Positions 1 to 34,363 of a stretch of 53,317 nucleotides of DNA are shown piece after piece; positions within the stretch are counted from its first letter, which is position 1, and every line of letters begins with the position of its first letter. The position numbers and the translations under genes were made by a program. Source of the stretch: an uncultured Eubacteriales bacterium (GTDB taxonomy: Bacteria; Bacillota; Clostridia; Oscillospirales; CAG-272); the NCBI GenBank assembly GCA_949451655.1, contig CASTST010000003.1, positions 1-53,317 on the forward strand, read 5' to 3'. The notes under the pieces are model-generated. The model was not told the DNA's origin and made no database searches. It saw only the letters and a program-made list of their open reading frames with translations.

Positions 1-210
1 AGTCACAATCGCTTCGCTTGGCTGTGACAGCCCCCTTTGCACAAGGGGGCCTTTTAACGCAAGTGCTTGCTTCGCGACAGCTCCCTTTACTGGGGGGAGC
101 CTTATGAATTTTGATGCTACGTAACAGCTTCTTTGCTGGGAGGAGGCTTGGGTTTGAATGGCGCTTGACCCTATGAAGCCGTGCGGATCCTCACATGGAG
201 CCTTTTTTGG
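1..210. repeat. Cluster of GC-stem hairpin modules (E-type units of the mosaic intergenic repeat family), cut by the window edge
   Basis: Successive units of the form CGC..GACAG + CYCCC-TTTGCACAA-like loop-GGGRG + CCTTTT, e.g. 28-51 CAGCCCCCTTTGCACAAGGGGGCC. The same module recurs in eight other intergenic clusters. Confidence 0.8.
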
Positions 211-303
211 CTGGATACGCGAAATGCTCCAAGGTTTTTTACCAACTTCTGCCCACTGTCAAGCAAGCGCCGGTAAAATCTGCAAAAAAATTTGCAAAAT
301 CTA

Positions 304-332
304 TTGCAAAACAAAGGATTTTATGATATAAT
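304..332 (+). promoter_or_regulatory. Sigma-A type promoter for tRNA-Trp
   Basis: TTGCAA (304-309), 17-bp spacer, TG-n-TATAAT (324-332). It lies about 30 nt upstream of the tRNA 5' end. Confidence 0.7.
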
Positions 333-362
333 AAAATGCGTTATCGATACTGATAACAATAT

Positions 363-438
363 AGGGGTATAGCTCAGTTGGTAGAGCAGTGGTCTCCAAA
401 ACCACGTGTCCAGAGTTCGAGTCTTTGTGCCCCTGCCA
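363..438 (+). tRNA. tRNA-Trp (anticodon CCA), 76 nt, CCA end encoded
   Basis: Manual cloverleaf fold. Acceptor AGGGGTA/TGCCCCT, D-arm GCTC..GAGC, anticodon stem GTGGT/ACCAC with loop CTCCAAA, T-arm CAGAG-TTCGAGT-CTTTG, discriminator G, then CCA. Confidence 0.95.
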
Positions 439-443
439 TCTGA

Positions 444-496
444 AAACACCATTGAAATCCGAACCCCTGTGTTTGGACACCAATGGTGTTTTTGAT
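444..496 (+). terminator. Rho-independent terminator (tRNA trailer)
   Basis: Stem AACACCATTG (445-454) pairs with CAATGGTGTT (481-490) and is followed by a T-run. Confidence 0.75.
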
Positions 497-566
497 ATAA
501 ACCCAGTATTTATGCGGCTTTTCGAGGTCGCATTTTCTTTTTGCAATCTGGACTCAAAAGAAAAAA

Positions 567-1865
567 TGTGAAATTTACAAGATGAATCACTGAAACCTAA
601 CCTTTTCGAACCCGTTAGTCTATTCGCACGTGTCTTATAAATCCGCTTGTTTTAAGGCGTATTCTTGTTCCTTTTGTTCTGGAGTCTTGTACTGTAGCTT
701 TTTATGTGGACGCTTTGTATTGTAAAATATTATATATTTGTCCACTGCATCACGAAACTCCTTTTCCGATTTGTATTTTGTTCTGTAAAGTTCTTCTCTC
801 TTCAGAGAAGAAAAGAACGATTCCATAACGGAATTGTCATACGGAACATAAGGTCGGGAAAAAGAATGCGTAATATTTAAAGACTTCAAGTAATCCTCCA
901 TTGTTTTAGAAGCGTAGTTGAATCCTCTGTCGGTATGAAAAATCAAATTTGTATTCGGTTGTCTTTTTGCATATGCTTGCTGGAAAGTTGACTTTACGAG
1001 TTGCGTGCTGTTTTTCTTTCCCACCTTATAGCCGATTACCAAGCGGGCGTATAAATCCATGACCACACAGATATAAAAGGCTTTGTCATGAAATTTGAAA
1101 TATGTAACATCGCTTACCCAAATCACATTTGGTGCATTCGGATCAAACTCTTGATTGAGACAATTTTTTTGCTTTCGCTTTTCCTCATCGTATAGTTTCT
1201 TTGCCACTTGACGGATGCTGCCGATTCCCATATCTTTCATAAGAGTACGTACCATTTCTTCACTTACTTTGATACCTTCATTTCGAATAACAGCGGTTAT
1301 TTTACCTGCACCAAAGATTTGATTGCTTTCATCATAAATTTCCCGTATTCGTATACGCAGTTCTTCTTTGCGCCTTGAATACCAAGTATTGTCTTTCTTG
1401 TTGCGAAAAATATGATTGTAGAATGTACCTCTCGAAATGTCCAATGCATCGCAGATTATATGAACATTATATTTCCCGTGCAACTGCTCGGCGGCATACA
1501 GTTTTTCTTTTAGTGGTGACTTGGCTGTACAAGTAACCGATTGCAGGAGTTCGATCATTCCCTCTAAACGCTTTACTTTATTTTCGAGCAAATGAAAGTT
1601 TCGAACATTGCTAACTTTTCGTTTGCTGTTGACTTGTTCTTCTCGATATACCTTCAGCCAACTGTAAAATGTGCTTTTTGGTACTCCAGTATCTGCAATA
1701 ATATTGGCTGCTGTTTCTCCACCGGATATAAAACGGTCAATACCCGCTTGCTTTTCTTCGTCAGTGTATTTACACATCATATAATCATCTCCTTCAAGAT
1801 GATTATATCATGTGGATTACAATTAATAAACTACAATATATATGGTTGTTGATTGAAAAATGACA
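567..1865 (-). mobile_element. IS3-family insertion sequence (boundaries approximate)
   Basis: It contains one 381-aa HTH+DDE transposase ORF. Candidate weak terminal inverted repeats start with TGTG at 567 and end with TGACA at 1861-1865 (about 13 of 24 matches by eye). The ~1.3 kb size fits IS3. Confidence 0.5.
635..1780 (-). CDS. IS3-family transposase, HTH and DDE (rve) domains fused in one frame
   Basis: N-terminal HTH (GVPKSTFYSWLKVYREE) followed by a heptad region. DDE signature: WVSDVTYF ... FHTDRGFNY ... MESFFSSLKRE. The tail YNTKRPHKKLQYKTP is typical of IS3 OrfB. Confidence 0.9.
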   Translation of the reverse strand: MMCKYTDEEKQAGIDRFISGGETAANIIADTGVPKSTFYSWLKVYREEQVNSKRKVSNVRNFHLLENKVKRLEGMIELLQSVTCTAKSPLKEKLYAAEQLHGKYNVHIICDALDISRGTFYNHIFRNKKDNTWYSRRKEELRIRIREIYDESNQIFGAGKITAVIRNEGIKVSEEMVRTLMKDMGIGSIRQVAKKLYDEEKRKQKNCLNQEFDPNAPNVIWVSDVTYFKFHDKAFYICVVMDLYARLVIGYKVGKKNSTQLVKSTFQQAYAKRQPNTNLIFHTDRGFNYASKTMEDYLKSLNITHSFSRPYVPYDNSVMESFFSSLKREELYRTKYKSEKEFRDAVDKYIIFYNTKRPHKKLQYKTPEQKEQEYALKQADL

Positions 1866-1957
1866 CAAAATATGATATAAATATAGTTGAAAGAATATAA
1901 GCTTGTTTTATCAGTAGAAAAAATTTTTTATAATAAAAAATGAAAGGATAAAAATGT

Positions 1958-4540
1958 ATGAATTTATTTGAGAGCGGTTCTGATTGGAGAAGATGGGATT
2001 TGCACTTACATACTGCAAGCTCATATGATTACGTATATAAAAACACGGATTGTGATGAAATATTAGCTCAAAAACTACAAGATAATAATATTGCAGCTGT
2101 AGCAATAACTGATCATTTTATAATAGACAAGGATAGAATTACCAATCTAAGAAAATTAGCTCCTGATACGGTATTCTTTCCTGGTGTAGAGTTGCGCACA
2201 GATAAAGGTGATACCAATATTCATATAATTCTAATATTTTCGGACAAATCTAATCTTGACGAACTTGCGGAAGATTTCAATGCGTTCAAAAGAGAGGCTC
2301 AAAACAAAGATGATGACGAAAGTATATATTGGGATTATAATTCACAAATAATTCCCTTTGCAGCAAAACATGATGCTTTGATTTCAATACACGCAGGAAG
2401 AAAGACAAACGGAGTTGACGATAGAATTTCTAATTCTCTGCCCCATAATCAAGCTGTTAAAGAGGAGTACGCTACAACGATATCTATGTTCGAAATGGGA
2501 CAAGTTCGAGATTTTGATGAATATAGAAAACATGTTTTCCCTGATATCGGGGTTAAGCCAATGGTAATTGGATCGGATAATCATGATGCACGAAATTATA
2601 ATCCTGCGAACAAACTGTGGATAAAAGCCGATGTTACATTTAATGGCTTAAAACAAATAATTTATGAACCAGAAGAACGTGTGTGCATCTCTGATACAAA
2701 ACCTGAATGTAAACCTGCCTATTATGTAATTGATAGAGTGGTTTTAGATGATGAAGAATTTTCAAATGAGCCTATTTATTTTAATGATAAGTTAACATGT
2801 ATCATTGGCGGGAAATCTACTGGCAAATCAATTCTCCTTCATAATATGGCTAAGGCTATTGATGAAAATCAAGTTCAGGTAAAAGAGCTGATTGTAAACA
2901 CTTCCACCAAAGAACTGACCAATACATCGGTTTATTGGTCTGATGGTGAAAATGATGGCGATAGACATATTATCTATATTCCGCAATCATATCTGAATTG
3001 TTTAAGTGACAAACAAGAGGTCACAACAGAAATAGATAATATGATTCAAAGTGTCATCTTTAATAATAAAAAGGCTAAGGCATCATTTGACAAAATGCTG
3101 AATGCAATAAAAGAAAAACGTTCGGAGCTAAATGTTAAAATTCTAAATTTGCTGGATATTCATAAAGAAATAGTTGAGTTAGAGGATGAAAAAAAGAATC
3201 TTGGAGATAGAAGCGGAATAGAAAAAGAAATTAAAAACCTTCAAGAACAGAAAGATGCGCTTTCCAAAGAATTAGAGATTTCTGATGAGGATATAACAAA
3301 ATATGAAACTGCATTAGCTGAAAGTTCTAACAAATTAAAACTATTAAACAAAGTGAATCAAGAGATATTATCACTTAAATCTATAACGACAATTGTTGAA
3401 CCCGCCGTTATTAGTTCGGATAATTTTTCTTATGATACTTTAAGAAAAGTCGACGAAACCAAAACTCAAATAATCGATGAAGCTAATAAAGTATGGACTT
3501 CGAAGAAAGAAGACCTTTTAAATGAATTAATCGACAAGCAAAAGCAACTGCAGGACGAAAAAGAAAAACATGATGCAGTTGTTAAAGAATTACAGCCTAA
3601 AATCCAAGGCAATAAAGCTATTGCTGAATTTTCTTCTAAAATATTAGCAGAAAAAGATAAACTTGCAGCATTTAATACTTTGGATGAAAAACTAAAAGCC
3701 AAAAAAGCTGAAGAGCAAATAATGATAGCTGAAATATATTCAATACCATTTCAAATAAAAGAACTGCGTAATGAATATGCGAGTGTTATAAATAACGAAG
3801 CAACTTTTAGAGGGCATGAAATAGAGTTTAAAGTCGAAGTACCGTTCAAAAAAGAGGAGTTTTTGAAAATAATTGAGACTGATTTCGTTATTAAAACTGT
3901 GAAATTCAAAGAAACAATAAAAATGGATTCTTTTGCTGAAGAAGATTACAATGAAGAAAAACTCAAAGAGATTATTGAAAAATTGTTATCGGGTGTGCTT
4001 GAAACCAAAGTTGGACATAACATTGAATCGATATTGAGAGATATTAATGATGACTGGTATAACATCAAATACAAGGTTATCATGGATAACGATAACATAG
4101 ATGTAATGTCTCCGGGTAAAAAAGCATTAGTATTGCTAAAGCTTTTAATCGATTTGGCAGAAAGCAAATGTCCTATTTTGATTGATCAGCCTGAAGATGA
4201 CCTTGACAATAGATCGGTGTTCGATGAATTGATTCCATTCATACGTCGTAAGAAAAAAGAGAGACAGATTATTGTTGTAACGCATAACGCCAATGTTGTT
4301 CTCGGCGCGGATGCAGAAGAAATAATAATAGCCAATCAAACCGGCAGCAAATCCGAGAATAAAGAAAAACGATTTGAATATCGCTCAGGTGCTATCGAAA
4401 ATGACAATCCTGTTTTCACTATAGATGGAAGCATAGAAAGTGGTATACTCAATTCAAAAGGTATACAACAGCATATTTGCGATATTCTCGAAGGTGGCGA
4501 AATTGCATTTGAAAAGAGAAAGAATAAATATAGAATTTAG
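1958..4540 (+). CDS. PHP-domain phosphoesterase fused to a Rad50/SbcC-like coiled-coil ABC-type ATPase (Ppl / TrlF-like)
   Basis: PHP metal-ligand motifs WDLHLHT, ITDH, GVE, SIHAG, GSDNHD. Walker A IIGGKSTGKS. A K/E-rich coiled-coil insert of about 350 aa. Signature-like SPGKKAL, Walker B ILIDQPEDDLD, H-loop VVTHN. RBS AAAGGA upstream. The gene is AT-rich. Confidence 0.8.
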   Translation: MNLFESGSDWRRWDLHLHTASSYDYVYKNTDCDEILAQKLQDNNIAAVAITDHFIIDKDRITNLRKLAPDTVFFPGVELRTDKGDTNIHIILIFSDKSNLDELAEDFNAFKREAQNKDDDESIYWDYNSQIIPFAAKHDALISIHAGRKTNGVDDRISNSLPHNQAVKEEYATTISMFEMGQVRDFDEYRKHVFPDIGVKPMVIGSDNHDARNYNPANKLWIKADVTFNGLKQIIYEPEERVCISDTKPECKPAYYVIDRVVLDDEEFSNEPIYFNDKLTCIIGGKSTGKSILLHNMAKAIDENQVQVKELIVNTSTKELTNTSVYWSDGENDGDRHIIYIPQSYLNCLSDKQEVTTEIDNMIQSVIFNNKKAKASFDKMLNAIKEKRSELNVKILNLLDIHKEIVELEDEKKNLGDRSGIEKEIKNLQEQKDALSKELEISDEDITKYETALAESSNKLKLLNKVNQEILSLKSITTIVEPAVISSDNFSYDTLRKVDETKTQIIDEANKVWTSKKEDLLNELIDKQKQLQDEKEKHDAVVKELQPKIQGNKAIAEFSSKILAEKDKLAAFNTLDEKLKAKKAEEQIMIAEIYSIPFQIKELRNEYASVINNEATFRGHEIEFKVEVPFKKEEFLKIIETDFVIKTVKFKETIKMDSFAEEDYNEEKLKEIIEKLLSGVLETKVGHNIESILRDINDDWYNIKYKVIMDNDNIDVMSPGKKALVLLKLLIDLAESKCPILIDQPEDDLDNRSVFDELIPFIRRKKKERQIIVVTHNANVVLGADAEEIIIANQTGSKSENKEKRFEYRSGAIENDNPVFTIDGSIESGILNSKGIQQHICDILEGGEIAFEKRKNKYRI

Positions 4541-4561
4541 CAGTAAGGAGGATAATATCAT

Positions 4562-5836
4562 ATGCAGGAAATAAAATGCCCAAAATGTGGAGAGGTGTTT
4601 CAGGTCGATGAGTCTGGTTATGCCGCTATTGTTAAGCAAGTTCGTGATAAAGAATTTGAAAAAGAGATATTAGAGCGACAGAATGTTTATCAAAACGAAA
4701 GGGATTCTGCAGTCAAAATCGCAGTAACAAAGATTGAGTCCGAAAAAGATAAAGAAATATCGGAGTTGCGTGCAATACTTAAAACCGAGAAGACAGAAAA
4801 GCAATTAGAAATTGAAAAAATTGAATCTGTTAAAGATAAACAACTTGCAGAAAAAGAATTAGAAATTTCCAGATTAAAGGGTGAACTCGAACTTAATAAA
4901 ACTAGCACAGACTTGACTGTTAAGAATGCGGTTCAGGAAAAAGAAACAACGATTCTTGAACTTAAAAGTCAAATTAAGCTTAAGAACAATGAATGGGAAT
5001 TGAAAGAAAAGTCTCTTTGTGAAAAGCACGCTGATGAAATTAAACGTCGAGAAGATGAAATTGCATATTATAAAGACTTTAAAGCTCGACAGTCTACAAA
5101 GATGATTGGCGAAAGTTTGGAACAACATTGTGAAACGGAATTTAATAAATTAAGAGCTACTGCGTTTCAGAATGCTTACTTTGAAAAAGATAATGATATT
5201 ACAACAGGTAGCAAAGGTGACTTTATCTACAGGGAATTTTCTAATGATGGTATAGAATTCATTTCAATTATGTTCGAAATGAAGAATGAAATGGATACTA
5301 CAGCAACAAAACATAAGAATGAGGATTTTTTTAAGGAACTAGATAAAGATAGAAAAGAAAAAAATTGTGAGTATGCTGTTTTGGTTACAATGCTTGAATC
5401 AGATAATGAGTATTACAATTCAGGAATTGTAGATGTTTCTTATAAATATCCTAAAATGTATGTTGTGATACCACAATTCTTTATACCTATCATTACTATT
5501 TTAAGAAATGCTGCATTAAACTCTCTGCAATATAGACACGAACTGGAGTCAGTTCGTAATCAAAATATTGATATTACGCATTTCGAAGAGGACATAAACG
5601 ACTTCAAGGATAAGTTTTCTAGAAATTTTAGATTAGCTAGTGACAAATTCAAAAAAGCTATCGATGAGATTGATAAAACTATTGACCATCTTCAAAAAAC
5701 AAAAGAAGCTTTGCTTTCATCTGAAAATAATTTAAGATTAGCAAACACCAAAGCTGAAGATCTTACGATAAAGCGATTAACAAAGGGTAATCCTACTATG
5801 GCAGCAAAGTTTGCCGAACTAGACAACAAAATATAA
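4562..5836 (+). CDS. DUF2130-like protein: N-terminal CxxC knuckle, coiled coil, C-terminal PD-(D/E)xK-like nuclease fold
   Basis: The start [33 protein letters not shown] matches my recollection of DUF2130 N-termini. The C-terminal core has GDFIY ... IMFEMKNE (D...ExK). A strong RBS AAGGAGG lies 21 bp after the previous stop, so the two genes are likely co-transcribed. Confidence 0.7.
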
Positions 5837-5840
5837 ATTG

Positions 5841-5900
5841 TGAAAACACTATTGAAATTCCGCGATTCTATGGTTTGAACTCAATGGGGTTTTGCTTTAT
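5841..5900 (+). terminator. Terminator-like hairpin that is a diverged second copy of the tRNA-Trp trailer
   Basis: TGAAAACACTATTGAAAT (5841-5858) matches TGAAAACACCATTGAAAT (441-458) at 17 of 18 positions. The distal arm CAATGGGGTTTTG corresponds to CAATGGTGTTTTTG. Confidence 0.55.
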
Positions 5901-5923
5901 AACGGCGATATTTTAGTGATTTT

Positions 5924-6040
5924 TTAAAATTGGCTCTTTCCTTCTATTTCCTTATGTTTTGGAGTCTTGTACGCTGAGAGTTCAACTCCAACACGAAACC
6001 GCTGAAAATATCTTTTCCGTCCCGATTGGGCAGAGAGAAG
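5924..6040 (-). pseudogene. Remnant of the 3' end of a second IS3-family transposase
   Basis: The DNA block TGTTTTGGAGTCTTGTAC (about 5953-5970) matches TGTTCTGGAGTCTTGTAC near the stop of the intact transposase (about 682-699). The translated tail ..RFRVGVELSAYKTPKHKE resembles the IS3 OrfB C-terminus. No upstream DDE domain is present. Confidence 0.35.
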
Positions 6041-7748: not shown

Positions 7749-8465
7749 ATGCATACAATATACGAAACCAAAACAACCAGACAGCGAGAGGCACTGAAAG
7801 ACTTCTTCGGCGGGTTTGAAGGTGAACAAGTCCCGGAAGAGTTATTGGACCGTCTGTTTCAATATGAAGAACTAATGATTAAGTATCGCTCGGCTATCCG
7901 GGAGATTACAACAAAGCTTGAAATTCTGAATGATGAATTATCTTCCTCAACAAAGCAAAATCCCATTGAAAGCATACAGTCCCGGATTAAGCGCCCCCAA
8001 AGCATCGCTGGAAAGCTGCGGCGGCTGCACCAGCCGGTGGCGGTAGAATCTATTGCACGGAATTTAAACGATGTAGCAGGAATTCGTGTAATCTGCCCGT
8101 TCATCAACGATATATACGCAGTGGAAAAAATGCTGCTCCAGCAGGATGATGTGCGTCTGATTGCCCGAAAGGATTATATTCGCAGCCCAAAGGAAAGCGG
8201 ATACCGCAGCCTGCATTTGGTAGTGGAAATTCCCGTATTCTTTTCCATGCGAAAAGAATTTATTCGGGTGGAAATACAGATTCGCACAGTAGCTATGAAT
8301 TTTTGGGCAAGCCTGGAGCATCAGATACGGTACAAAAACGATTCCCCGCAGGTTCAGGAAATTGCAAGTGATCTGAAAGAATGCGCGGATACTATCGCAC
8401 GAACAGATGAAAAAATGCAGGCGCTGCGGCAGCGGATTTTGACCCATACGGAAGAAGTATTATAA
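7749..8465 (+). CDS. Small alarmone synthetase (GTP pyrophosphokinase, RelP/RelQ type)
   Basis: RelA/SpoT synthetase-domain motifs: IQSRIKRPQSIAGKL, DVAGIRVIC, GYRSLHLVVE, VEIQIRTVAMNFWASLEH. The start is set at the first ATG after the MATE stop, giving 238 aa. Confidence 0.85.
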   Translation: MHTIYETKTTRQREALKDFFGGFEGEQVPEELLDRLFQYEELMIKYRSAIREITTKLEILNDELSSSTKQNPIESIQSRIKRPQSIAGKLRRLHQPVAVESIARNLNDVAGIRVICPFINDIYAVEKMLLQQDDVRLIARKDYIRSPKESGYRSLHLVVEIPVFFSMRKEFIRVEIQIRTVAMNFWASLEHQIRYKNDSPQVQEIASDLKECADTIARTDEKMQALRQRILTHTEEVL

Positions 8466-8502
8466 TATGAACTCTTCGGAACAACACTTGCACAAACAAA
8501 AA

Positions 8503-9065
8503 CTCCCGCGGCAAAGGGGTGCCGATGTAATCGGTGGGGGATTGTATACACGAACTGCCGATTTACAGATTATGCAAAATGATAGCAAGGACACTCCCTC
8601 AGTCTCCGCTCCGCGGAGCCAGCCCCCTTTGCACAAGGGGGCCTTTTTGTTTAAATTGGCTTGTGGGACAGCACTCGACACAGCACCACCCAATCATTAA
8701 CCCCTGTGCAAAACTTCAGTTGGCGTAGCTTCTTCCAACTATTAAGCCCCCTTGTGCAAGGGGCAGTCACGCCGCACCATGCCAGACTTAGCCCCCTTGT
8801 GCAAGGGGCGGTCACGCCGCGCCACACCAGACTTAGCCCCCCTTGTGCAAAGGGGGGTGCCGATGTAATCGGCGGGGGGATTGTATACACGAACTGCCGA
8901 TTTGCAGATTATACAAAATGATAGCAAGGACAATCCCTCAGTCGCTCCGCGACAGCTCCCTTTGCACAAGGGAGCCTTTTTGTTTGTACTATACGGAAGT
9001 TCCCTTTGATGGGGGCTTTTTTGTACTTGATTCGTGTTATCTTCCCTATACCGAGGAGGCTTTTT
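8503..9065 (+). repeat. Mosaic repeat cluster: two core elements plus 45-bp tandem A-type units and degenerate E-type hairpins
   Basis: Core copies at 8503-8649 and 8836-8982. Tandem 45-bp units at 8746-8790 and 8791-8835 (GCCCCCTTGTGCAAGGGGC.GTCACGCCGC..). The core architecture is described in the findings. Confidence 0.85.
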
Positions 9066-9136
9066 AAGTTGAAAATAAATTTTATTTCTGCCTTTTGGGT
9101 AAAATAAAAGAAAACGATCCGGGGGGAAAAGACAAA

Positions 9137-9982
9137 ATGCGGGAACGAATTTTATCTGACATTGCAATAAAACGTTTTGAAAAGCATCTGCAAAAGGAAG
9201 AAAAAAGCAAAAATACAATTGAAAAGTATCTGCGGGATGTGCGGGCGTTTATAAGATTTACAGGCAAAAGCAGCATTATCAAGGAAACGGTGATCGCCTA
9301 CAAAACACAGCTGATCCAAAATAACTACGCCGCCCACAGCATCAATTCCATGCTGGCAAGCATCAACAGCCTGTTCTCATTTCTTGGCTGGACGGACTGC
9401 AAGGTGAAATCTATCAAGCTCCAGCGACAAATCTACTGCCCTGAAGAAAAGGAACTGACCAAAGCGGAATATCTACGTCTTGTAAGCACAGCAAATAGCA
9501 GAGGCAACAAACGGCTTGGTCTCATTTTGCAGGCAATCTGCGGCACGGGAATCCGCGTGAGCGAGCTTCCGTTTATCACCGTAGAATCTGTCAAAGCTGG
9601 TGAAGCAGCCGTTTCGCTCAAGGGCAAGATGCGGTCCGTCTTTATTGTGCGAGATCTGCAAAAGAAACTGCTCCGCTATGCAGCAGAGCAGAAAATCAAA
9701 ACAGGATCAATATTTATTACCCGTACCGGCAAACCCATGAGCCGCACAAACATCTGGCGGGAAATGAAAAACCTTTGCATCCAGGCACATGTCAATCCCG
9801 GAAAAGTATTTCCCCATAATCTGCGGCATTTGTTCGCCCGCACCTTTTACGGCATTGAAAAAGATATTGCAAAACTTGCCGACATTCTCGGTCACAGCAG
9901 CATCAATACCACAAGAATCTATATTGTCACCACCGGAAATGAGCACCGCCGCCGCATGGAAAATATGAAGTTGATTTTATGA
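9137..9982 (+). CDS. Tyrosine site-specific recombinase (XerC/D-like integrase family)
   Basis: Catalytic signature GTGIRVSEL (Arg), HNLRHLFA (His-x-x-Arg), GHSSINTTRIY (His ... Tyr). An N-terminal SAM-like domain is present. The start is chosen at the ATG preceded by GGGGGGAAAAG; the ORF track alternative is 9095. Confidence 0.85.
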   Translation: MRERILSDIAIKRFEKHLQKEEKSKNTIEKYLRDVRAFIRFTGKSSIIKETVIAYKTQLIQNNYAAHSINSMLASINSLFSFLGWTDCKVKSIKLQRQIYCPEEKELTKAEYLRLVSTANSRGNKRLGLILQAICGTGIRVSELPFITVESVKAGEAAVSLKGKMRSVFIVRDLQKKLLRYAAEQKIKTGSIFITRTGKPMSRTNIWREMKNLCIQAHVNPGKVFPHNLRHLFARTFYGIEKDIAKLADILGHSSINTTRIYIVTTGNEHRRRMENMKLIL

Positions 9983-10000
9983 AAAAATCACTGAAAAGTC

Positions 10001-10030
10001 ATTTACAACATAAACTGCATTATGTTGTAA
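10001..10030. promoter_or_regulatory. Left lox-like recombination site (IRL)
   Basis: TTTACAACATA-AACTGCAT-TATGTTGTAAA: 11-bp perfectly palindromic arms around an asymmetric 8-bp core. It begins 19 bp after the recombinase stop. Confidence 0.75.
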
Positions 10031-10180
10031 ACAGAACAGAAAGAAGTCGGCATAATTCTATTTATAATTTAAAAACAGACGCAAAAAAAGAATCTCTGCC
10101 ATAAGCCAAAAAATTACTTAGAAGCGAGATTTTACATTCGACATTTTCTTCTTACATACGCTTTTTTATATCAAAATTTA

Positions 10181-10208
10181 TTGCATTTTTTCATGTCTGT
10201 GCTATAAT
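10181..10208 (+). promoter_or_regulatory. Strong sigma-A promoter inside the putative invertible segment, currently facing the polysaccharide operon
   Basis: TTGCAT (10181-10186), 16-bp spacer, TG-C-TATAAT (10200-10208). Confidence 0.7.
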
Positions 10209-10251
10209 AGATTGTGTACAATAGGGTATATATTTCTGAAAGCATTCACCG

Positions 10252-10279
10252 TTACAACATAATGCAGTTTATGTTGCGG
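10252..10279. promoter_or_regulatory. Right lox-like recombination site (IRR), inverted relative to IRL
   Basis: TTACAACATA-ATGCAGTT-TATGTTGCGG. 25 consecutive nt (10252-10276) equal the reverse complement of the 25 nt at 10005-10029 in IRL, so the 8-bp core is flipped. The outer arm degenerates after 7 nt. Confidence 0.75.
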
Positions 10280-10306
10280 ATGCAGGGGAGGAGTGTTCAT
10301 TATAAT

Positions 10307-12598
10307 ATGGGAACCGTATTATTCAAACACAATTCTGACGCATATGAATCGGCACTTGCATTGTTGAAGCGAGAGAAAAAAGCCGCAGTCATTCATCCTA
10401 CAGGAACGGGGAAATCCTTCATCGGTTTCAAGCTGTGCGAGGATCACCCCGATATTACTGTCTGCTGGCTTTCTCCTTCCGAATACATTTTTCAAACCCA
10501 GCTCGAAAATTGGGTGGCAGCAGGCGGTACACAACTTGAAAATATCATTTTTATAACCTACGCCAAATTGATCCTGATGAGCGAAGAAGAACTGAATACC
10601 ATTCACCCCGGATATATCATTCTGGATGAATTTCATCGGGCAGGTTCCGAAATCTGGGGGAGCAGCGTCAAAAAACTGCTTATGCTATATGCAGGCACAC
10701 CGATTCTTGGACTTTCCGCAACCAATATCCGGTATCTTGACAATCAGCGCGATATGGCTGACGAACTGTTCGATGGTCACATCGCCTCAGAAATGACACT
10801 CGGCGAATCCATCGTGCGCGGCATTTTAAACGCGCCCAAATATGTGCTCTCCGTATTTTCCTATCAAAAAGATCTGGAAAGATATAGGGCAAAAATAAAA
10901 CGTTCTAAAAACAAGGCGGTTCGGGATGAAGCAGAGCAGTATCTCGAAGCGCTGCGCCGCGCCCTCGCAAAAGCGGACGGAATGGAGGAAATCTTTCAGA
11001 AACATATGGATGATCCCCATGGGAAATATATCGTTTTCTGCGCAAATGCGGAGCATATGCGGGAAATGATGGACAAAGCAAGCGAGTGGTTTCGTTTGGT
11101 TGACAAAAATCCCAATATATATTCCATGTATTCTGAAGATCCCGCGGCAAGAGCCTCTTTTGCCGCATTCAAAGCAGACAATGATGCTTCTCACCTGCGT
11201 CTGCTTTACTGCATTGACGCTTTGAACGAAGGCATTCATCTTGACGATGTAAGCGGCGTGATACTGCTTCGTCCCACTGTATCGCCTATCGTATATAAGC
11301 AGCAGATAGGACGTGCGCTTTCTGCATCCAAAAAGAAAAACGCAGTGATTTTCGATATTGTAATGAACATCGAAAATCTGTACAGTATCGGCATGTTAGA
11401 GGACGAAATGCAGATTGCAATGACCTACTACCGCTCTCTCGGAAACGGCGAGGCAATTGTAAACGAGCACTTCCGCATCATTGATGAGGTGCGCGACTGC
11501 CGCATGCTGTTTGAAAAGTTGAACGACACGCTTCATGCTTCATGGGACATAATGTATGAAAAAGCAGAGGAATATTTTTCGCAAAAGGGCGACCTTGCCG
11601 TTCCCCATCATTACAAAACAGATGAGGGATATTCACTCGGAAACTGGCTTCAAACGCAAAGAAAGGTCCGCTCCGGCGAGCAATACGGAACGCTGACAGA
11701 AGAACGGATTGAAAAGCTTGATGCAATCGGTATGATATGGGACAGCTACCGGGATCTTTCCTGGGAAAGAAACTTTACAGAAGCAAAAGCATATTATGAG
11801 GCTTTCGGTAATCTGAACGTCAGCATCAACTATGTAACACAAACCGGGCTGCGGCTGGGCGCATGGATTTCCAACCTGCGTGCCGCCAGAAAAAACGGAA
11901 GTCAGAGAAAAGACATTTCAGAACAGCGCATCGAGGCGCTTGACAAAATCGGCATGGTATGGGATATGTCGGATATGCTGTGGAATCAATACTACGGCGC
12001 ATGCCTGACATATTACCGCGAGCATGGCAATCTTGATGTGCCTGCCAGATATGTAACCGGCGACGGGCTGCGGCTGGGCAGTTGGATGATCCACGTCCGT
12101 GCATCATATAAAGGAAAAGGCAAAAATTATAAATTAAGCGATGCGCAGATACAGGCGCTGGACGAGATTGGAATGCTCTGGAATGGAAAGCATGACATGC
12201 TCTGGGAAAAAGGGTTTGAAGAGGCACAGAAATACCGCAGAGCCTTTGGAAATCTTGACGTTCCCACCGGATTCAAGACAGAATCGGGATACGCGCTTGG
12301 CAAATGGATTGCACGTCAAAGAGAAAATACCGGCTTGTCCGAATGCAGAAAAAACAAGCTAAGCAGTATCGGCATGATATGGAAAAAACAGGACTCGTGG
12401 GAAAAGCGCTATACCCTTGCCAAAGCATACTACAAGGAACACGGCAATTTGAATGTTCCTGCCAAATATACAGTCGATGGCATTTGGCTCAACAAATGGC
12501 TGAATGAGCAGCGTCAGATATATCTTGGCAAGCGGGGCAGCAAATGCCTGACCCAGGAACAAATTGCTAAGCTCAGTTCATTAGGTGTGATCCGGTGA
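10307..12598 (+). CDS. SF2 DEAD/DEAH-box (ResIII-like) helicase with five C-terminal helicase-associated (HA) domain repeats
   Basis: Motif I HPTGTGKS, motif II ILDEFH, SAT, motif VI QQIGRALS. Then five units of about 70 aa of the type ...HGNLNVP..Y....G..LG.W...QR........L...QI..L..IGM.W. The start is at the ATG after RBS GGGGAGGAG. Confidence 0.8.
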   Translation: MGTVLFKHNSDAYESALALLKREKKAAVIHPTGTGKSFIGFKLCEDHPDITVCWLSPSEYIFQTQLENWVAAGGTQLENIIFITYAKLILMSEEELNTIHPGYIILDEFHRAGSEIWGSSVKKLLMLYAGTPILGLSATNIRYLDNQRDMADELFDGHIASEMTLGESIVRGILNAPKYVLSVFSYQKDLERYRAKIKRSKNKAVRDEAEQYLEALRRALAKADGMEEIFQKHMDDPHGKYIVFCANAEHMREMMDKASEWFRLVDKNPNIYSMYSEDPAARASFAAFKADNDASHLRLLYCIDALNEGIHLDDVSGVILLRPTVSPIVYKQQIGRALSASKKKNAVIFDIVMNIENLYSIGMLEDEMQIAMTYYRSLGNGEAIVNEHFRIIDEVRDCRMLFEKLNDTLHASWDIMYEKAEEYFSQKGDLAVPHHYKTDEGYSLGNWLQTQRKVRSGEQYGTLTEERIEKLDAIGMIWDSYRDLSWERNFTEAKAYYEAFGNLNVSINYVTQTGLRLGAWISNLRAARKNGSQRKDISEQRIEALDKIGMVWDMSDMLWNQYYGACLTYYREHGNLDVPARYVTGDGLRLGSWMIHVRASYKGKGKNYKLSDAQIQALDEIGMLWNGKHDMLWEKGFEEAQKYRRAFGNLDVPTGFKTESGYALGKWIARQRENTGLSECRKNKLSSIGMIWKKQDSWEKRYTLAKAYYKEHGNLNVPAKYTVDGIWLNKWLNEQRQIYLGKRGSKCLTQEQIAKLSSLGVIR

Positions 12599-12643
12599 AC
12601 TGCACCGGCGAGTTGATATGGTTTAAAAGATAGAGGAGATTCA

Positions 12644-14695
12644 ATGTCTGATCAGAAAAAAATACTCGGTAAAGTGAAAAAGCGCCCTGCATTCGAGCAT
12701 TGGCATTTAATTGCGCTTTATCTGATGATTTATGATTTCTGTGCTGTCAGCGGAGCCTATTTTTTAGCATTGTGGCTGCGTTTTGACTGCCATTTTTCTG
12801 AAATTAAGGTTCAGTATTTATCAGCGTGGGTAAAATTTGCGCCGTTTTATGCGGTGATTTGCTGCGTAGTCTTTTGGATGCTTCGGCTGTACCAAAGCCT
12901 TTGGCGTTTTGCAAGCTTCAATGAACTGCGGCGCGTTTCCCTTGCCTCCATTATAACATCGGCATTTCATACGGTTGCCATTACAATAGTTGTGCGGCGC
13001 ATGCCGATTTCCTATTACATTATAGGCGCAGTGATTCAATTTGTGGCAGTACTGTTTATACGCTTTGCTTACCGGTATATTCTGCTTGAGCGCAGCAAAA
13101 GAACAAGGTCGCAGCAAAAGGCGGCGGCAAGCCGTGTCATGCTCATTGGCGCCGGCGTTGCAGGGCAGATGATCCTTCGCGATCTGCACAGCGCCAAAGA
13201 AGTTAATGAACGGGTATGCTGTATTATTGACGATAACAGAAACAAATGGGGACGGTACATAGACGGCGTGCCGATTGTCGGCGGCAGAGACGACATTCTG
13301 GTGAACGTAAAAAAATATAATATTGAAAAGATTTTCCTTGCCATACCCAGCGCCGCTGCGGAACAAAGACGGGATATTCTGGATATATGCAAAGAAACCA
13401 ATTGCATTTTAAAAAACCTGCCCGGCGTGTTCCAATTTGTTGCAGGCAACATAACAGTGGATTCCATGAAAAACATCACTGTGGAAGATCTGCTGGGGCG
13501 CGAACCGATTCAGGTCAATATGGATGAGATCTACGATTTTATCAAGGATAAAGTCATTCTTGTCACAGGCGGAGGAGGATCCATTGGCAGCGAGCTTTGC
13601 CGACAAATCGCAAAGCATCAGCCGCGCCGGCTTATTATCTTCGATATGTATGAAAACAACGCGCACTCTATCGGTCTTGAGCTTAGAAGGAATTATCCTG
13701 ATCTGAAACTGGAAATATTGATCGGCTCCGTGCGGGACAGCCGCCGGATCGACAGTGTTTTTGCAAAATATAAGCCGGATGTGGTATACCATGCCGCCGC
13801 ACATAAGCATGTTCCGCTGATGGAGGACAGCCCGTGCGAGGCAATCAAGAACAATGCAATCGGCACATATAAGACCGCGTACGCGGCAATGATACACGGC
13901 TGCAAACGCTTTGTGCTGATCTCAACGGATAAAGCGGTAAATCCCACCAATATTATGGGAGCGTCCAAGCGGCTGTGTGAAATGATTATACAGGCATTTG
14001 ACCGAAAAATAAAAGAAGGCAAAGCCTCCGAGCTGAAGCCGTTCCATATTCATGCCGAGGGTACCTATGGAGGCGTATGCAGTTCCGCACAGGAAAACAC
14101 AGCATATCAAACCCGGTTCGTTGCTGTACGTTTTGGTAATGTGCTGGGCAGCAACGGTTCTGTAATTCCCATATTTAAGGATCAAATTGCCAAGGGCGGT
14201 CCTGTCACAGTTACGCATCCCGATATCGTCCGCTATTTTATGACGATTCCCGAAGCTGTTTCCCTTGTGCTCCAGGCAGGCGTTTACGCTTGCAGCGGTG
14301 AGATTTTTGTTCTGGATATGGGCTCTCCGGTCAAAATCGACACACTTGCGAAAAACCTGATCCGACTGTCGGGATTGAAACCGGATGAAGATATCAAAAT
14401 TGTTTACACCGGTCTTCGCAAAGGCGAAAAACTGTACGAAGAAAAGCTGATGGCTGAAGAAGGAATGAATACAACACCGAATCATCTGATTCATATCGGA
14501 AAGCCGATCCCATTTGATACGGATGTTTTTCTGGGGCAGCTGCAGAATCTGATGGTTGCCGCTTACAACGGGCAGGAACGTGATATACATAAGCTCGTAG
14601 CCGAAACTGTGACAACATATCATCCAATAGATGTGCACAGCGCTGACGACCGACAGATAAAAACTGCCGCACCAGCTTTAACCGGTGCAGAATGA
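12644..14695 (+). CDS. capD: Membrane-anchored UDP-sugar 4,6-dehydratase (CapD/PglF/WbpM family, Polysacc_synt_2)
   Basis: Four N-terminal TM segments followed by two Rossmann regions (MLIGAGVAGQ; VTGGGGSIGSEL). The motifs YHAAAHKHVP and STDKAVNPTNIMGASKR are typical of this family. Confidence 0.85.
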   Translation: MSDQKKILGKVKKRPAFEHWHLIALYLMIYDFCAVSGAYFLALWLRFDCHFSEIKVQYLSAWVKFAPFYAVICCVVFWMLRLYQSLWRFASFNELRRVSLASIITSAFHTVAITIVVRRMPISYYIIGAVIQFVAVLFIRFAYRYILLERSKRTRSQQKAAASRVMLIGAGVAGQMILRDLHSAKEVNERVCCIIDDNRNKWGRYIDGVPIVGGRDDILVNVKKYNIEKIFLAIPSAAAEQRRDILDICKETNCILKNLPGVFQFVAGNITVDSMKNITVEDLLGREPIQVNMDEIYDFIKDKVILVTGGGGSIGSELCRQIAKHQPRRLIIFDMYENNAHSIGLELRRNYPDLKLEILIGSVRDSRRIDSVFAKYKPDVVYHAAAHKHVPLMEDSPCEAIKNNAIGTYKTAYAAMIHGCKRFVLISTDKAVNPTNIMGASKRLCEMIIQAFDRKIKEGKASELKPFHIHAEGTYGGVCSSAQENTAYQTRFVAVRFGNVLGSNGSVIPIFKDQIAKGGPVTVTHPDIVRYFMTIPEAVSLVLQAGVYACSGEIFVLDMGSPVKIDTLAKNLIRLSGLKPDEDIKIVYTGLRKGEKLYEEKLMAEEGMNTTPNHLIHIGKPIPFDTDVFLGQLQNLMVAAYNGQERDIHKLVAETVTTYHPIDVHSADDRQIKTAAPALTGAE

Positions 14696-23600: not shown

Positions 23601-25395
23601 TACAAATAACACTTTTGCCGGCGACAATGTACAAGTTGATACAGAATCCTATGTATGGCACGATCAAAATCCCAAGCCCGATGGATACGCTGTGTGGAAT
23701 GGCGGTCATGATCATAGAGCAGAAACAAAGCAGTACTATGGTGAAGAAACGACTAACCATACAGATGCAGTAGCACTCCCTGATGCTGCAGCTACCTGCA
23801 CAAAGGACGGATACACAGGAAGAACCTACTGTAACGAATGCAAGTCCGTTGTTGACTGGGGCACAACCGTTCCGGCAACCGGACATAGCTTCGTAACTGA
23901 AGGCAATATCAAAATATGTACTGCATGTAATAAATCATACAGTGCTGACGGTCTCACCGGCTGGCAGGTGCTTGCAGGCGAGAACTATTACTTTGGAAGC
24001 TACAGCGAAGTAGTAGACGGTCAATATACTGTAGACGGTCATACCTACACCTTTGCAAACAGCAAGCTTATTGACGGCGCATGGGAAAATGACGGCGTTG
24101 GTCTCACATGCTGGTGGGCAGGAGAACAGCTCTTCAACCGTTGGTTCAAGATTGGAGACAATACCTATCACTTTACCGGTATTTACGCAGATACTGGATT
24201 CAGCCGTATTGCGATCAATACAAATGTTGGATCAAGATATCATATGTTTGATGAACACGGTGTGTTCTGTGATGACTTTAACGGTATTTATATCTTTAAT
24301 AACAATACTTATTACTTGAAAGACGGTATTGCCAATGTCCATGGTCTCGTAGAATACGACGGCGATTACTACTACATCAACAGCAGTTATGTCGCAATCA
24401 AAAATACCGGATATCGTCTTACCGATTCTATGACAAACGGCTTGCTCCCTGCCGGAACATACTATTTCGACGCAGACTGCAAGATGATTCAAATGAAAAA
24501 CGGAATCGTCACAGAGGATAATGGAGATATTCGTTACTACGTGAATGATGTACCCCAATACGCCGGACTTGTTCAGGATAACGCCGGAAATTACTACTAT
24601 ATCAACAGCACCCTGAAGGCTGTAAAGAATACCGCTTACACAATCAGCGCTGCGAAAACAAACGGGCTCCTTCCTGCCGGAACATATAAATTCGGTGCGG
24701 ACGGCAAGATGATTCAGGCGAAAAACGGAATTGTCAAAGACGATAACGGAGACGTTCGTTACTATGTAAATGATGTACCCCAATATGCCGGACTTGTTCA
24801 GGACAGCGACGGAAGCTACTACTATATCAACAGCTCCCTGAAAGCTGTAAGAAATACCGCTTACACTATTGGTACTGCGAAAACAAACGGGCTCCTTCCT
24901 GCCGGAACGTACAATTTCGGTGCGGATGGTAAGATGATCCAGGCGAAAAACGGTCTTGTCAAAGACGATAACGGGGATATCCGCTATTACGTAGATAATA
25001 AGCCCCAATATGCCGGACTTGTTCAGGACGATGCCGGAAATTACTACTACATCAACAGCACCTTGAAGGCTATAAAGAATACTGCCTACACAATCGGCGC
25101 TGCGAAAACAAACGGACTCCTTCCTGCCGGAACATATAATTTTGGTGCGGACGGCAAGATGATCCGGGTGAAAAACGGTCTTGTCAAAGATGATAACGGG
25201 GATATCCGCTATTACATAGATAATAAGCCCCAATATATCGGACTTGTTCAGGACGATGACGGAAACTACTACTATATTAACAGCACCTTGAAGGCTGTAC
25301 GTGGTTCCTCCTATACCATTGGCGCTGCAAAAACAAACGGCCTCCTCCCCGCCGGAACATACCATTTCGGTGCGGACGGAAAAATGATTCCATAA
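20647..25395 (+). CDS. 1582-aa secreted multidomain protein: phosphodiester glycosidase (DUF2233/NAGPA-like) domain, Ig-like and CBM-like domains, Cys-rich segment, C-terminal 75-aa wall-binding-type repeats
   Basis: Signal peptide MKNQKLMKVLAASLAVLMLVGFLPIFAFSA. Segment VGIKEDGTFVMVMNDGRQSPYSAGFNSYEMAEFMLSLGCVTAVNGDGGGSSTF resembles the phosphodiester glycosidase family. CxxC pairs occur around CNECKS..CTACNKS. The C-terminus has about 4.6 repeats. RBS AAAGGAG. Confidence 0.75.
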   Translation: MKNQKLMKVLAASLAVLMLVGFLPIFAFSASVDYVTGNDDYYKVISKNDWDLAPGIVESEIVLNNDISTRRQVAHVVEVDINNPYTKVIPSSKGMTPTPGNYGVQIMSQQAKYAEEHGYGNVVAAMNLSLSWYNSSYYVEHPELVGEPLGYMVLDGKMYVNSQGQTSGAQTCVVINFDEKDGEARPSDMPKVEIRSTATAITGWEEQVIPANFGFLVKDGKNLYSEDHDSDSASRSFVGIKEDGTFVMVMNDGRQSPYSAGFNSYEMAEFMLSLGCVTAVNGDGGGSSTFLSQRPGEDLKINCSPSDGSERPTTHGILVISTAPATGEFVRASISAENEYFTPGSTVKFNAVGTDLVGTAAEIPADVTWQLADPSMGTISDGIFISNGKTGTATAQMVWNGEIVGEASVQIVIPEAISFAQDVITVPFGKEITINLKATINGGLNDVVLKESDIELTLDNSALGTLDGFKFTAVNEEAAPESLSGILNAALLHGEGLKATAKLSLGKGSKILYDFEDGDASQWAYYPNSKYNYIEYEGSTSLATREDGQVHSGNYALRLNTDFSVTTESGYLCGYVGLTGNERIDLKDATRIGMWIYFPHEAAGLRCHLRVEPVTERDADGNIVKTGGKYNSQSILDGDKDCGTPGFVTSFPESGWHYVSFDLTQLGDLGGCIPANATILQYYLCDRDGAKYNYSHFDYKSLIQNLTMYIDDVTIDYSSVVDDREAPIFSSVLLSDNGSNSDEPMSLNNGYVSNMSELSLAARVAENTTNANATGIDASTAKAYVDGTEVACKYTNGLMTIDTKDFSNGSHTIKFTICDRQGNYASAIRTFTVSAENNDRSTVKLVPHDAALDKILFGSLYYVDLVATDIETVQSVSVDLDLNDISIWQLDHMEAAEGFEASYSIIDSDDNIARVTITRTGESDATGEYSVVSMPIRTWELPAVESDYNPAGVVRMYDQYKKTNEIWPVDISVTVKAGTVFFNDGTNNTFAGDNVQVDTESYVWHDQNPKPDGYAVWNGGHDHRAETKQYYGEETTNHTDAVALPDAAATCTKDGYTGRTYCNECKSVVDWGTTVPATGHSFVTEGNIKICTACNKSYSADGLTGWQVLAGENYYFGSYSEVVDGQYTVDGHTYTFANSKLIDGAWENDGVGLTCWWAGEQLFNRWFKIGDNTYHFTGIYADTGFSRIAINTNVGSRYHMFDEHGVFCDDFNGIYIFNNNTYYLKDGIANVHGLVEYDGDYYYINSSYVAIKNTGYRLTDSMTNGLLPAGTYYFDADCKMIQMKNGIVTEDNGDIRYYVNDVPQYAGLVQDNAGNYYYINSTLKAVKNTAYTISAAKTNGLLPAGTYKFGADGKMIQAKNGIVKDDNGDVRYYVNDVPQYAGLVQDSDGSYYYINSSLKAVRNTAYTIGTAKTNGLLPAGTYNFGADGKMIQAKNGLVKDDNGDIRYYVDNKPQYAGLVQDDAGNYYYINSTLKAIKNTAYTIGAAKTNGLLPAGTYNFGADGKMIRVKNGLVKDDNGDIRYYIDNKPQYIGLVQDDDGNYYYINSTLKAVRGSSYTIGAAKTNGLLPAGTYHFGADGKMIP
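24367..25392 (+). repeat. In-frame tandem repeat, period 225 bp (75 aa), about 4.6 copies
   Basis: TAC TAC TA(C/T) ATC AAC AGC recurs at 24367, 24592 and 24817, and by the 225-bp period the two further YYYINS units fall at about 25042 and 25267. The protein unit is YYYINS.LKA.KNTAYTI.AAKTNGLLPAGTY.FGADGKMIQAKNG.VKDDNGD.RYYV...PQYAGLVQD..G. Confidence 0.9.
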
Positions 25396-25406
25396 AATCA
25401 TAAAAT

Positions 25407-25462
25407 GCCCGGTCATCTGACCGGGCAGCCGCACAAATCAGAACCTCCACGCGGTGTGCGGC
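25407..25462 (+). terminator. Two GC-rich hairpins after the large secreted-protein gene (weak or partial terminator, no T-run)
   Basis: GCCCGGTC-ATCT-GACCGGGC (25407-25426), then CCGCACA ... TGTGCGG ending about 25462. Neither is followed by a U-tract. Confidence 0.3.
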
Positions 25463-29835: not shown

Positions 29836-29848
29836 AACTGGAGTGCAT

Positions 29849-32082: not shown

Positions 32083-32143
32083 TTGCATATGCCTGATGAA
32101 AAGCGGATCCGGTGCATCCGGATATGTATGGAGAAAACGTATA

Positions 32144-33894: not shown

Positions 33895-34255
33895 AAAAAA
33901 GCCCCCGGCAAAGGAAACTCCCACGATAGCATCAAACTAAAAAGGCCCCCTTGTGCAAAGGGGGCTCCCGCGTTAGCGGGTGGGGGATTGTTTTGCTATC
34001 ATTTTGCAGCATCTTCAAATCGGCAGTATAACTTAAACAATCCCTCCGTCTCACCTACGGTGAGCCACCTCCCTTTGCACAAGGGAGGCTTTAAAAGTTT
34101 GTGTGCTGCGGCGAACCAGCCCCCTTTGCACAAGGGGGCCTTTCTTTTTAGTTTTGGTGCTATCACAGGATACCTCAGGAGTTCGCTTTGCGGTCTCCAA
34201 CACAAGGTTTTGATGCTATCGCAGGAGTTCCCTCTGCTAAGGGAGGCTTTTTCAG
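33895..34255 (-). repeat. Mosaic repeat cluster with one core element in minus orientation plus flanking E-type hairpins
   Basis: Core at 33938-34090, with the central motif read on the minus strand: ACTGCCGATTTGAAGATGCTGCAAAATGATAGCA. Extra hairpins lie at about 34118-34150 and 34225-34255. Confidence 0.85.
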
Positions 34256-34363
34256 TTTGAAAATAGCTTGGAGGGTACTACCTCTCCATGGATTCTTTCA
34301 CGTTTGACGCTGCATTAGTCCAACGTCTTGTGCCATCACCCTTTCGTCTTCTTCAAAACCGGT

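Follow-up and report, generated by a model that had tools for sequence, protein, structure and literature searches.

The locus described here lies on contig CASTST010000003.1 (assembly GCA_949451655.1) of an uncultured Eubacteriales bacterium of the Oscillospirales, of which positions 1 to 53,317, hereafter referred to as the window, were analysed. At its core is a short DNA segment with a putative promoter, which is flanked by two inverted recombination sites and situated between the gene of a tyrosine recombinase (9137-9982, + strand) and 17 co-directional genes (10307-33837, + strand; 23.5 kb). The first of these genes encodes a superfamily 2 (SF2) helicase with HA repeats, and the sixteen genes that follow are annotated as polysaccharide genes. 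The segment is a real flip switch that was found both ways in the same strain, and it most likely exerts ON/OFF control of the surface-polysaccharide operon downstream.

Results

Two sites in inverted orientation, to which no strand is assigned, bound the segment. In the left site (IRL, 10002-10031) the arms TTTACAACATAA and TTATGTTGTAAA surround the 6-bp centre ACTGCA at 10014-10019. The right site (IRR, 10252-10277) reads TTACAACATAA-TGCAGT-TTATGTTGC, and its centre at 10263-10268 is the reverse complement of that of the left site, 249 bp away from centre to centre. A repeat finder returned a perfect inverted repeat of 25 nucleotides (nt) at 10006-10030 and 10252-10276 with 221 nt between its arms, as in an inverton, together with left-site arms that are palindromic over 12 nt around an asymmetric 6-nt centre. 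An earlier note on this DNA had described lox-like sites with 11-bp arms and an asymmetric 8-bp core. The inverted pair, the asymmetric core and the 25 nt of exact reverse complement were all recovered, whereas the left site had been placed at 10001-10030, one position too early, and the palindrome gives 12-nt arms and a 6-bp centre instead.

The layout is thus not that of lox or FRT sites (13-bp arms and an 8-bp spacer, 13-8-13); judged by their letters, the sites are dif-like (11/12-6-11/12). The 28-bp 11-6-11 layout of dif is matched in architecture only, and a comparison of TTACAACATAA-ACTGCA-TTATGTTGTAA with GGTGCGCATAA-TGTATA-TTATGTTAAAT of Escherichia coli dif, with 13 of 22 arm positions in common, likewise points to an architectural resemblance only (the E. 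coli and Bacillus subtilis dif sequences were confirmed in PMC3025954). Where XerA, XerC and XerD act on a single site per replicon, two inverted sites are present here. The palindromic arms would fit one recombinase that binds both arms as a homotetramer. The search for further copies proposed in the earlier note was carried out within the 53-kb window with up to three mismatches allowed, and it returned the two switch copies and no others (0 expected in 100 shuffles).

The stop codon of the recombinase gene lies 19 nt ahead of the left site. Its product of 281 amino acids (aa), annotated as a Xer-like putative invertase by Pfam, NCBIfam and Protein Data Bank (PDB) comparison, matched Phage_integrase (PF00589) with 80.1 bits against a cut-off of 27.1 and, in addition, the SAM-like N-terminal domain Phage_int_SAM_1. 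The catalytic set of the tyrosine recombinase superfamily is complete (R140, K162/164, H227-x-x-R230, H253 and Y262), and 119 of 120 homologues retain these residues. The gene, its signature and its distance from the left site had been read correctly before. The best NCBIfam models were XerA (134.8 bits), XerD (115.8 bits) and XerC (109.7 bits), all of them under their equivalog cut-offs of 220, 329.6 and 335.15, respectively. FimB/FimE-type invertase models gave weak matches of 28.1 and 23.3 bits, where 222 and 221 are the respective cut-offs. XerA of Pyrococcus abyssi was the closest PDB structure (4a8e, 4e-22). By curated cut-offs, the enzyme is classified as Xer-like, but neither as XerA, XerC or XerD nor as FimB or FimE; a Xer-like enzyme is in keeping with the dif-like sites.

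Between the perfect repeat arms, the segment (10031-10251, no strand assigned; 221 nt) contains a putative promoter on the + strand at 10181-10208, composed of the -35 hexamer TTGCAT (10181-10186) and, after a spacer of 16 nt, the extended -10 element TGcTATAAT (10200-10208). It faces the helicase gene, whose ribosome binding site (RBS) GGGGAGGAG (10285-10293, + strand) is located past the right site and 13 nt ahead of the ATG at 10307. All of these elements had been noted earlier and are present in the sequence. The promoter motif is conserved in ON alleles of three lineages, in which the promoter-proximal part of the segment (approximately 150 nt) is conserved and the recombinase-proximal part (approximately 70 nt) is not. 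An Rfam search of positions 8300-10500 gave no match at E<=1, and hence no known RNA element in the switch or the leader.

Natural alleles were found in both orientations. An exact look-up of the recombinase protein led to a 25-kb contig of the Joint Genome Institute (JGI; L005) that is 100.000% identical to window positions 8924-12982, except for 10031-10251, which is present as the exact reverse complement. Given that the flanks are identical and the segment is inverted, one strain exists in both orientations, namely ON in the window, with the promoter towards the helicase gene, and OFF in L005. When metagenome contigs were scanned for a motif from within the segment, one GenBank contig was returned, JAAGKN010000917.1 (L004), which stems from a second strain and is OFF as well. 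Here, the helicase and recombinase flanks are on the minus strand (98.7% and 96.0% identity), the segment is on the plus strand (98.2%), and the inversion junctions are at the repeats. The nearest species-level relative (L002, identical to L006) shares 88.7% nucleotide identity and is ON.

Sixteen contigs from independent runs represented a sister lineage, whose recombinase shares 89-90% identity with that of the window. All of them showed the order recombinase, switch and helicase, with five contigs ON, nine OFF and two too short to call. The centres read ACTTCA/TGAAGT in this lineage and ACTGCA/TGCAGT in the window, that is, the same G-to-T change is found in both sites. Such covariation would be expected if the centres had to be identical for strand exchange. 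With the 221-bp segment in either orientation in the same and in related strains, and breakpoints within the repeats in L005, L004 and the sister lineage, the proposal of an invertible promoter segment that is currently ON is directly supported. Contig ends were also considered as a sign of mixed orientation. They were located within approximately 400 nt past the recombinase stop in about 15 of 80 species-genome contigs and in 8 of 16 sister-lineage contigs; this is suggestive only, as contigs often also end just upstream of the recombinase gene, at repetitive hairpins.

Recombinase and sites belong to a cassette family of Clostridia. Homologues of the recombinase number thousands and form more than 100 clusters at 76-80% identity, almost all of exactly 281 aa. 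In species-representative genomes, relatives were encoded at more than 512 loci (Acutalibacteraceae, Oscillospiraceae, Ruminococcaceae, Lachnospiraceae and related groups), and in most of the best 80 of these loci the site pair starts approximately 27 nt past the recombinase stop. A scan that started from the sites (ACATAA-N6-TTATGT, a gap of 220-250 nt and again ACATAA-N6-TTATGT, with both centres free) recovered at least 120 loci, and all records listed were Clostridia or Bacillota-type assemblies. Among the matches listed, the free N6 centres were exact reverse complements in 117 of 118 loci, and the 3' end of a recombinase homologue was found at most 120 nt from a site in 109 of 118. In a pooled set of 150 distinct site pairs, centres were matched in 148; there were 76 different centres, none of them palindromic. 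The half-site consensus of the 150 pairs is t-a-C-a-ACATAAT with seven conserved arm positions, and the middle four of the six centre positions are variable across the family.

The family also bears on the promoter. TGnTAnAAT elements, 85 in total, were within 80 nt of a site and firing outward in 77 cases (21 towards the cargo gene, 56 towards the recombinase); the others were near a site and firing inward (five) or central (three). Their spacing to the best -35 was mostly 17 nt. The ON and OFF classes prefer the same two promoter-site distances, 35-38 and 46-49 nt, in mirror image, which is the distribution that an invertible promoter produces. Representative assemblies were biased towards OFF (53 OFF, 20 ON, one with elements at both ends and 76 without the strict motif). 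In most family members, the stretch from the recombinase stop to the left site holds a minus-strand hairpin followed by a U-run (-15.3 kcal/mol in L009 and -11.8 kcal/mol in L023, both at 4335-4375), an insulating element that appears to be oriented and placed to stop OFF-state transcripts.

The distances between site centres cluster at approximately 219, 229, 240, 251, 261.5, 272.5 and 294.5 bp (L006-L203), with statistics that are inflated by shared ancestry. This step of approximately 10.5-11 bp suggests that the helical phase between the sites must stay constant on a small loop of DNA. At least four genomes carry two cassettes. A private centre for each cassette, considered as a strict rule, had to be rejected: the cassettes L059 and L115 of CANQQT01 both have TCCGTA, while the centres differ between the cassettes of the three other two-cassette genomes. 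Such a common centre in one genome could let distant cassettes recombine.

Within the cassette family, a helicase with polysaccharide genes as cargo is limited to the window and its nearest relatives. The idea that the helicase is the typical cargo of this recombinase family was therefore rejected, as other cassettes front unrelated genes. The commonest cargo is an SPFH protein (Band_7_1) with a double zinc ribbon, and VWA, a LytS-type histidine kinase, TIR+TPR as well as zinc-ribbon proteins, membrane proteins and secreted proteins of more than 1000 aa (loci such as L024, L039, L012, L027 and L058) were found besides. The family is very large, hardly described and catalogued at most superficially.

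The helicase gene itself (10307-12598, + strand) encodes, according to Pfam, an SF2 helicase (ResIII/DEAD and Helicase_C) with five HA repeats, and the motifs GTGKS, DEFH, SAT and QxxGR are present in the translation. The earlier note had suggested that the coupling of the site pair to a helicase-led operon may be undescribed. A helicase as lead gene is not peculiar to this locus: in Clostridia, polysaccharide loci with a helicase+HA gene at their head are widespread, and other invertons often precede them. Helicase+HA homologues number 6182 at E<1e-30, and all six that were sampled are located at or near the head of polysaccharide loci. Four of these six loci have a different tyrosine recombinase of the Phage_int_SAM_3 type (303-313 aa) directly upstream, and the three of these four that were examined each contain an intergenic inverted-repeat pair with 133-161 nt between the arms and a TGCTATAAT extended -10, ahead of which TTGACA was found at a spacing of 17 nt where checked (P0160 loci; L230). 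Switch segments of this type are at 5778-5966 in L230 and at 5822-6014 in L233, and also occur in L234 and L236; that of L234 is inverted relative to L233 and L235, with 100% identity on the opposite strand.

A third type of site, TGTAATGAAGT-N6-ACTTCATTACA with centres that differ by locus, was found in front of each of three helicase+HA paralogues in the Lachnospiraceae metagenome-assembled genome CANQVH01 (L206, 4423-4447 and 4878-4902; L210, 4570-4596 and 4935-4961; L209, 1-28). In L206 and L210, a TTGACA-17-TGcTAGAAT promoter points away from the helicase gene (OFF), and the L209 contig begins exactly at the site. No Xer-like recombinase was detected within 5 kb upstream of the CANQVH01 helicase loci. 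Upstream of a helicase+HA polysaccharide locus, moreover, a 1.5-kb segment with a gene for a 381-aa integrase and TGTAATGAAGT-type repeats at its ends is inverted in L227 (3071-4574) in comparison to L228 (1791-3294). Our literature search found no paper that links HA-domain helicases to polysaccharide loci.

The sixteen polysaccharide genes (12644-33837, + strand) follow the helicase gene co-directionally and were identified by Pfam-type annotation. They include genes for a CapD-like dehydratase and a priming Bac_transf transferase, one glycosyltransferase of family GT2 and three of family GT1, an EpsG-type polymerase, LicD, a 1582-aa NAGPA-domain protein, a Wzx-type flippase, a CapE/F/G-like trio, an acyltransferase and VanZ. 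Intergenic gaps do not exceed 127 nt, and all but this one are 64 nt at most or overlaps. No canonical + strand terminator was found within the operon, the first one being located at 34119. The trio at 28001-33331 consists of CapE/FnlA-like, CapF/FnlB-like and UDP-GlcNAc 2-epimerase (CapG/FnlC-like) genes, from which we assume a polymer with an N-acetyl-L-fucosamine-type sugar; LicD presumably stands for a phosphocholine- or phospho-alditol-type decoration of the polymer. The 3' end of the NAGPA gene (24433-25390) is made up of 4.3 tandem copies of a 225-nt (75-aa) unit with 84% identity.

The flanking genes are ordinary chromosomal ones (MATE, a small RelA/SpoT synthetase, an ABC transporter, OGG and AddAB). 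A GC-rich hairpin, GCCCCCTTTGCACAAGGGGGC, has sixteen intergenic copies in the window, several of which are followed by a T-run (30, 8622, 8791, 8837, 8955, 33945, 34119, 37737, 37855, 37944, 44725, 44841, 49854, 52304, 52480 and 52755). Clusters of this hairpin flank the locus of the recombinase and the polysaccharide genes at 8500-9020 and 33900-34300, and longer repeats lie beside them, namely a 69-nt pair at 8536 and 8875 and a 45-nt tandem at 8745. The hairpins look like elements of the REP (repetitive extragenic palindromic) type that double as terminators. At the beginning of the window (1-6000), an IS3-family transposase gene (635-1780, minus strand) adjoins a low-GC stretch (30-35% in comparison to approximately 45% elsewhere). 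This stretch, which encodes a DUF2130 protein and has an 860-aa open reading frame without Pfam match, resembles an acquired island.

Discussion

We consider it likely that the locus is a phase-variation switch, in which a promoter segment is flipped by a cis-encoded Xer-like recombinase and controls a polysaccharide operon. The recombinase (9137-9982) would bind the palindromic dif-like arms of the two inverted sites, and strand exchange within the identical 6-bp centres ACTGCA/TGCAGT would flip the 221-bp segment with its single outward-firing sigma-70-type promoter and extended -10. In the ON state, the promoter would read across the right site, through the RBS and start codon of the helicase+HA gene, and into the 23.5-kb operon of the Wzx/Wzy type. 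In the OFF state, it would read towards the 3' end of the recombinase gene, which would leave the operon without a promoter of its own in the 30 nt remaining before the ATG. The promoter activity of the segment and the transcription of the whole operon from it are predictions from the sequence. The same applies to the catalysis of inversion by the adjacent enzyme: what ties the inversion to a dedicated recombinase is co-localisation, here and in the 109 of 118 site-first loci listed.

Several observations weigh against this interpretation. A generic promoter scan did not list the promoter, because its -35 TTGCAT agrees with TTGACA at three of six positions only. A terminator was looked for in the OFF-oriented segment and none was found, so that some basal expression in the OFF state could result from transcription running on from the recombinase gene. 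The insulating hairpin of the family is missing from the window lineage between the recombinase stop and the left site (9970-10004; -3.8 kcal/mol, no better than shuffles), and OFF-state transcription may therefore run antisense through the recombinase gene. The two states of this exact strain are each represented by a single contig, the window for ON and L005 for OFF. Given the dif-like arms, another Xer-type enzyme could act on the sites. Lastly, a GC-rich hairpin at 25406-25427, in the 127-nt gap between the NAGPA gene and the next glycosyltransferase gene, might split the operon in two.

This stable hairpin, together with many weak promoter-like matches inside the operon, is what speaks for a more limited role of the switch, in which the inversion is real but affects the helicase gene only, or perhaps the first few genes, and most polysaccharide genes are served by internal promoters. 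However, the hairpin has no T-run on the + strand, the other gaps of the operon are short, and the internal matches exceed the expectation from shuffles only slightly (49 vs. 37.3, standard deviation 7.0; 32 vs. 23.7, standard deviation 4.5). In addition, the CapD-like and priming transferase genes follow directly after the helicase gene. We regard this more limited role as unlikely.

It is also improbable that a recombinase from another locus flips the segment, be it the host XerC/XerD or the enzyme of a paralogous cassette, and that the adjacent gene is dispensable or otherwise employed. The arms do resemble the conserved XerD-binding arm of dif and are near-identical between cassettes, of which some genomes have two or more, and for a second inverton family, the one that precedes helicase paralogues, no recombinase was found in the 5 kb upstream. 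Against this stand the co-localisation mentioned above, the conserved spacing and orientation of the sites relative to the recombinase gene and the almost invariable catalytic residues of its homologues. An assembly artefact, or a rare fixed polymorphism from homologous recombination between the 25-nt repeats without programmed switching, is highly improbable, for although inverted repeats can mislead assemblers and many contigs break at or in the switch, both junction types are present in independent JGI, ENA, GenBank and Logan assemblies from different pipelines, the repeats of 25-30 nt are below typical read length, repeats of 25 nt are poor RecA substrates, the breakpoints are exact, the flanks of the ON/OFF pair are 100% identical over 4 kb, the centres covary and the promoter geometry is mirrored over approximately 150 loci.

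Beyond the switch by its adjacent recombinase, we tentatively put forward a broader reading, which is possible rather than probable. Polysaccharide loci headed by helicase+HA genes and placed under invertible promoters of at least three tyrosine-recombinase/site families would constitute an unrecognised design throughout the Clostridia. The helicase would be the functional counterpart of UpxY/UpxZ of Bacteroides, acting in locus-specific processivity or cross-locus control for long operons, and the Xer-derived cassette would be a portable module with shared dif-like arms, pair-matched 6-bp centres that keep cassettes apart in most genomes, and helically phased spacing. Two points may be novel leads: the helicase+HA gene at the head of phase-variable polysaccharide loci, and the spacing of the sites in helical phase.

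Phase-variable capsules define gut Bacteroides and shape phage resistance, immune recognition and colonization. To our knowledge, almost nothing comparable has been worked out for the gut Clostridia (Oscillospirales, Lachnospirales), which are abundant and mostly uncultured. The natural ON and OFF alleles alone show that an Oscillospirales-type bacterium flips the putative promoter segment of a 23.5-kb polysaccharide operon. The cassette is compact and self-contained, with one small recombinase and two sites of 28-30 bp in approximately 250 bp, and it is therefore easy to test and could serve as an orthogonal genetic switch. Hundreds of species carry this Xer-derived cassette in front of varied cargo, and the helicase+HA gene that recurs in the first position offers a new and concrete clue to the regulation of polysaccharide loci in Clostridia.

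Comparison with known systems

Invertible promoters next to recombinases, or served by them, are a well-known kind of system. The suggestion that this particular one might be undescribed holds in part: in the literature searched, no description of the exact site pair of the window was found, but gut Clostridia very commonly carry this family of recombinase and sites.

With the invertons of Bacteroides capsular polysaccharide loci, the locus would share a promoter flanked by inverted repeats in front of a long polysaccharide operon and the ON/OFF variation of the surface, and it shares the gut commensal host and a first operon gene that is not a biosynthetic enzyme. In Bacteroides, recombination involves Mpi and Tsr. 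Mpi, the main invertase, belongs to the serine recombinases and serves many promoters in trans; these have the Bacteroides sigma type, and the operons are led by the genes for NusG-like UpxY and for UpxZ. The window, in contrast, has a cis-encoded Xer-like tyrosine recombinase, a putative sigma-70-type promoter with an extended -10 and an SF2 helicase with five HA repeats, and does not show the combination of UpxY/UpxZ with Mpi.

The fimS element of E. coli resembles the proposed switch as a short promoter element (314 bp) that is inverted by adjacent tyrosine recombinases (FimB/FimE), and the OFF bias and the small loop together imply DNA bending. However, fimS has 9-bp repeats, two recombinases and a need for IHF and Lrp, while the window has one recombinase, dif-like 11/12-6-11/12 sites and weak scores with the FimB and FimE models. 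The best sequence relatives of the recombinase are found in the Xer systems (XerC/XerD-dif, XerA, XerH and XerS), with which the window has the 11-6-11 layout and the arm bases CATAA...TTATGTT of dif in common. In contrast to these, the window enzyme scores under every equivalog cut-off, the cassettes occur in hundreds and in some cases several times per genome, and an inverted pair with inversion as the outcome takes the place of one site at the terminus that serves dimer resolution.

In Mycoplasma agalactiae, the Xer-like enzyme Xer1 is reported to switch surface components of the vpma locus by high-frequency inversions (PMC2268961). Xer1 recombines sites within a multigene family, unlike the switch of the window. 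The RecV switches of Clostridioides difficile resemble the window in the tyrosine recombinase and in short regulatory segments flanked by inverted repeats in front of operons. RecV is described as one trans-acting enzyme for several dissimilar and non-adjacent repeats, whereas each cassette of the window family has its own adjacent recombinase and a conserved site, so that the two are set apart by description. Neither DeepInverton nor the C. difficile genome-wide study mentions a motif of the ACATAAT type.

Closest to the cassette family is inverton group 139 of the hCom2 community, which comprises 33 invertons in 17 strains, 32 of these invertons in the class Clostridia, and is linked to invertase group 35 (PhaseFinderDC, Microbiome 2025; PMC11892184). 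Nearly all members have a tyrosine-type recombinase/integrase nearby, the examples given have repeats of 13-25 nt with 206-228 nt between them, and orientation ratios shift during culture passaging (PMC11892184). That paper does not report a dif-like anatomy, matched variable centres or exopolysaccharide cargo, and the word "helicase" is absent from its main text. The cassette family described here is probably the same as group 139, whose inverted-repeat motif is not given in the text (PMC11892184). Geometry and taxonomy agree, and the centre-to-centre distances of the group 139 examples, calculated from the published coordinates as 231 and 241, are on or close to the spacing peaks of the family (PMC11892184).

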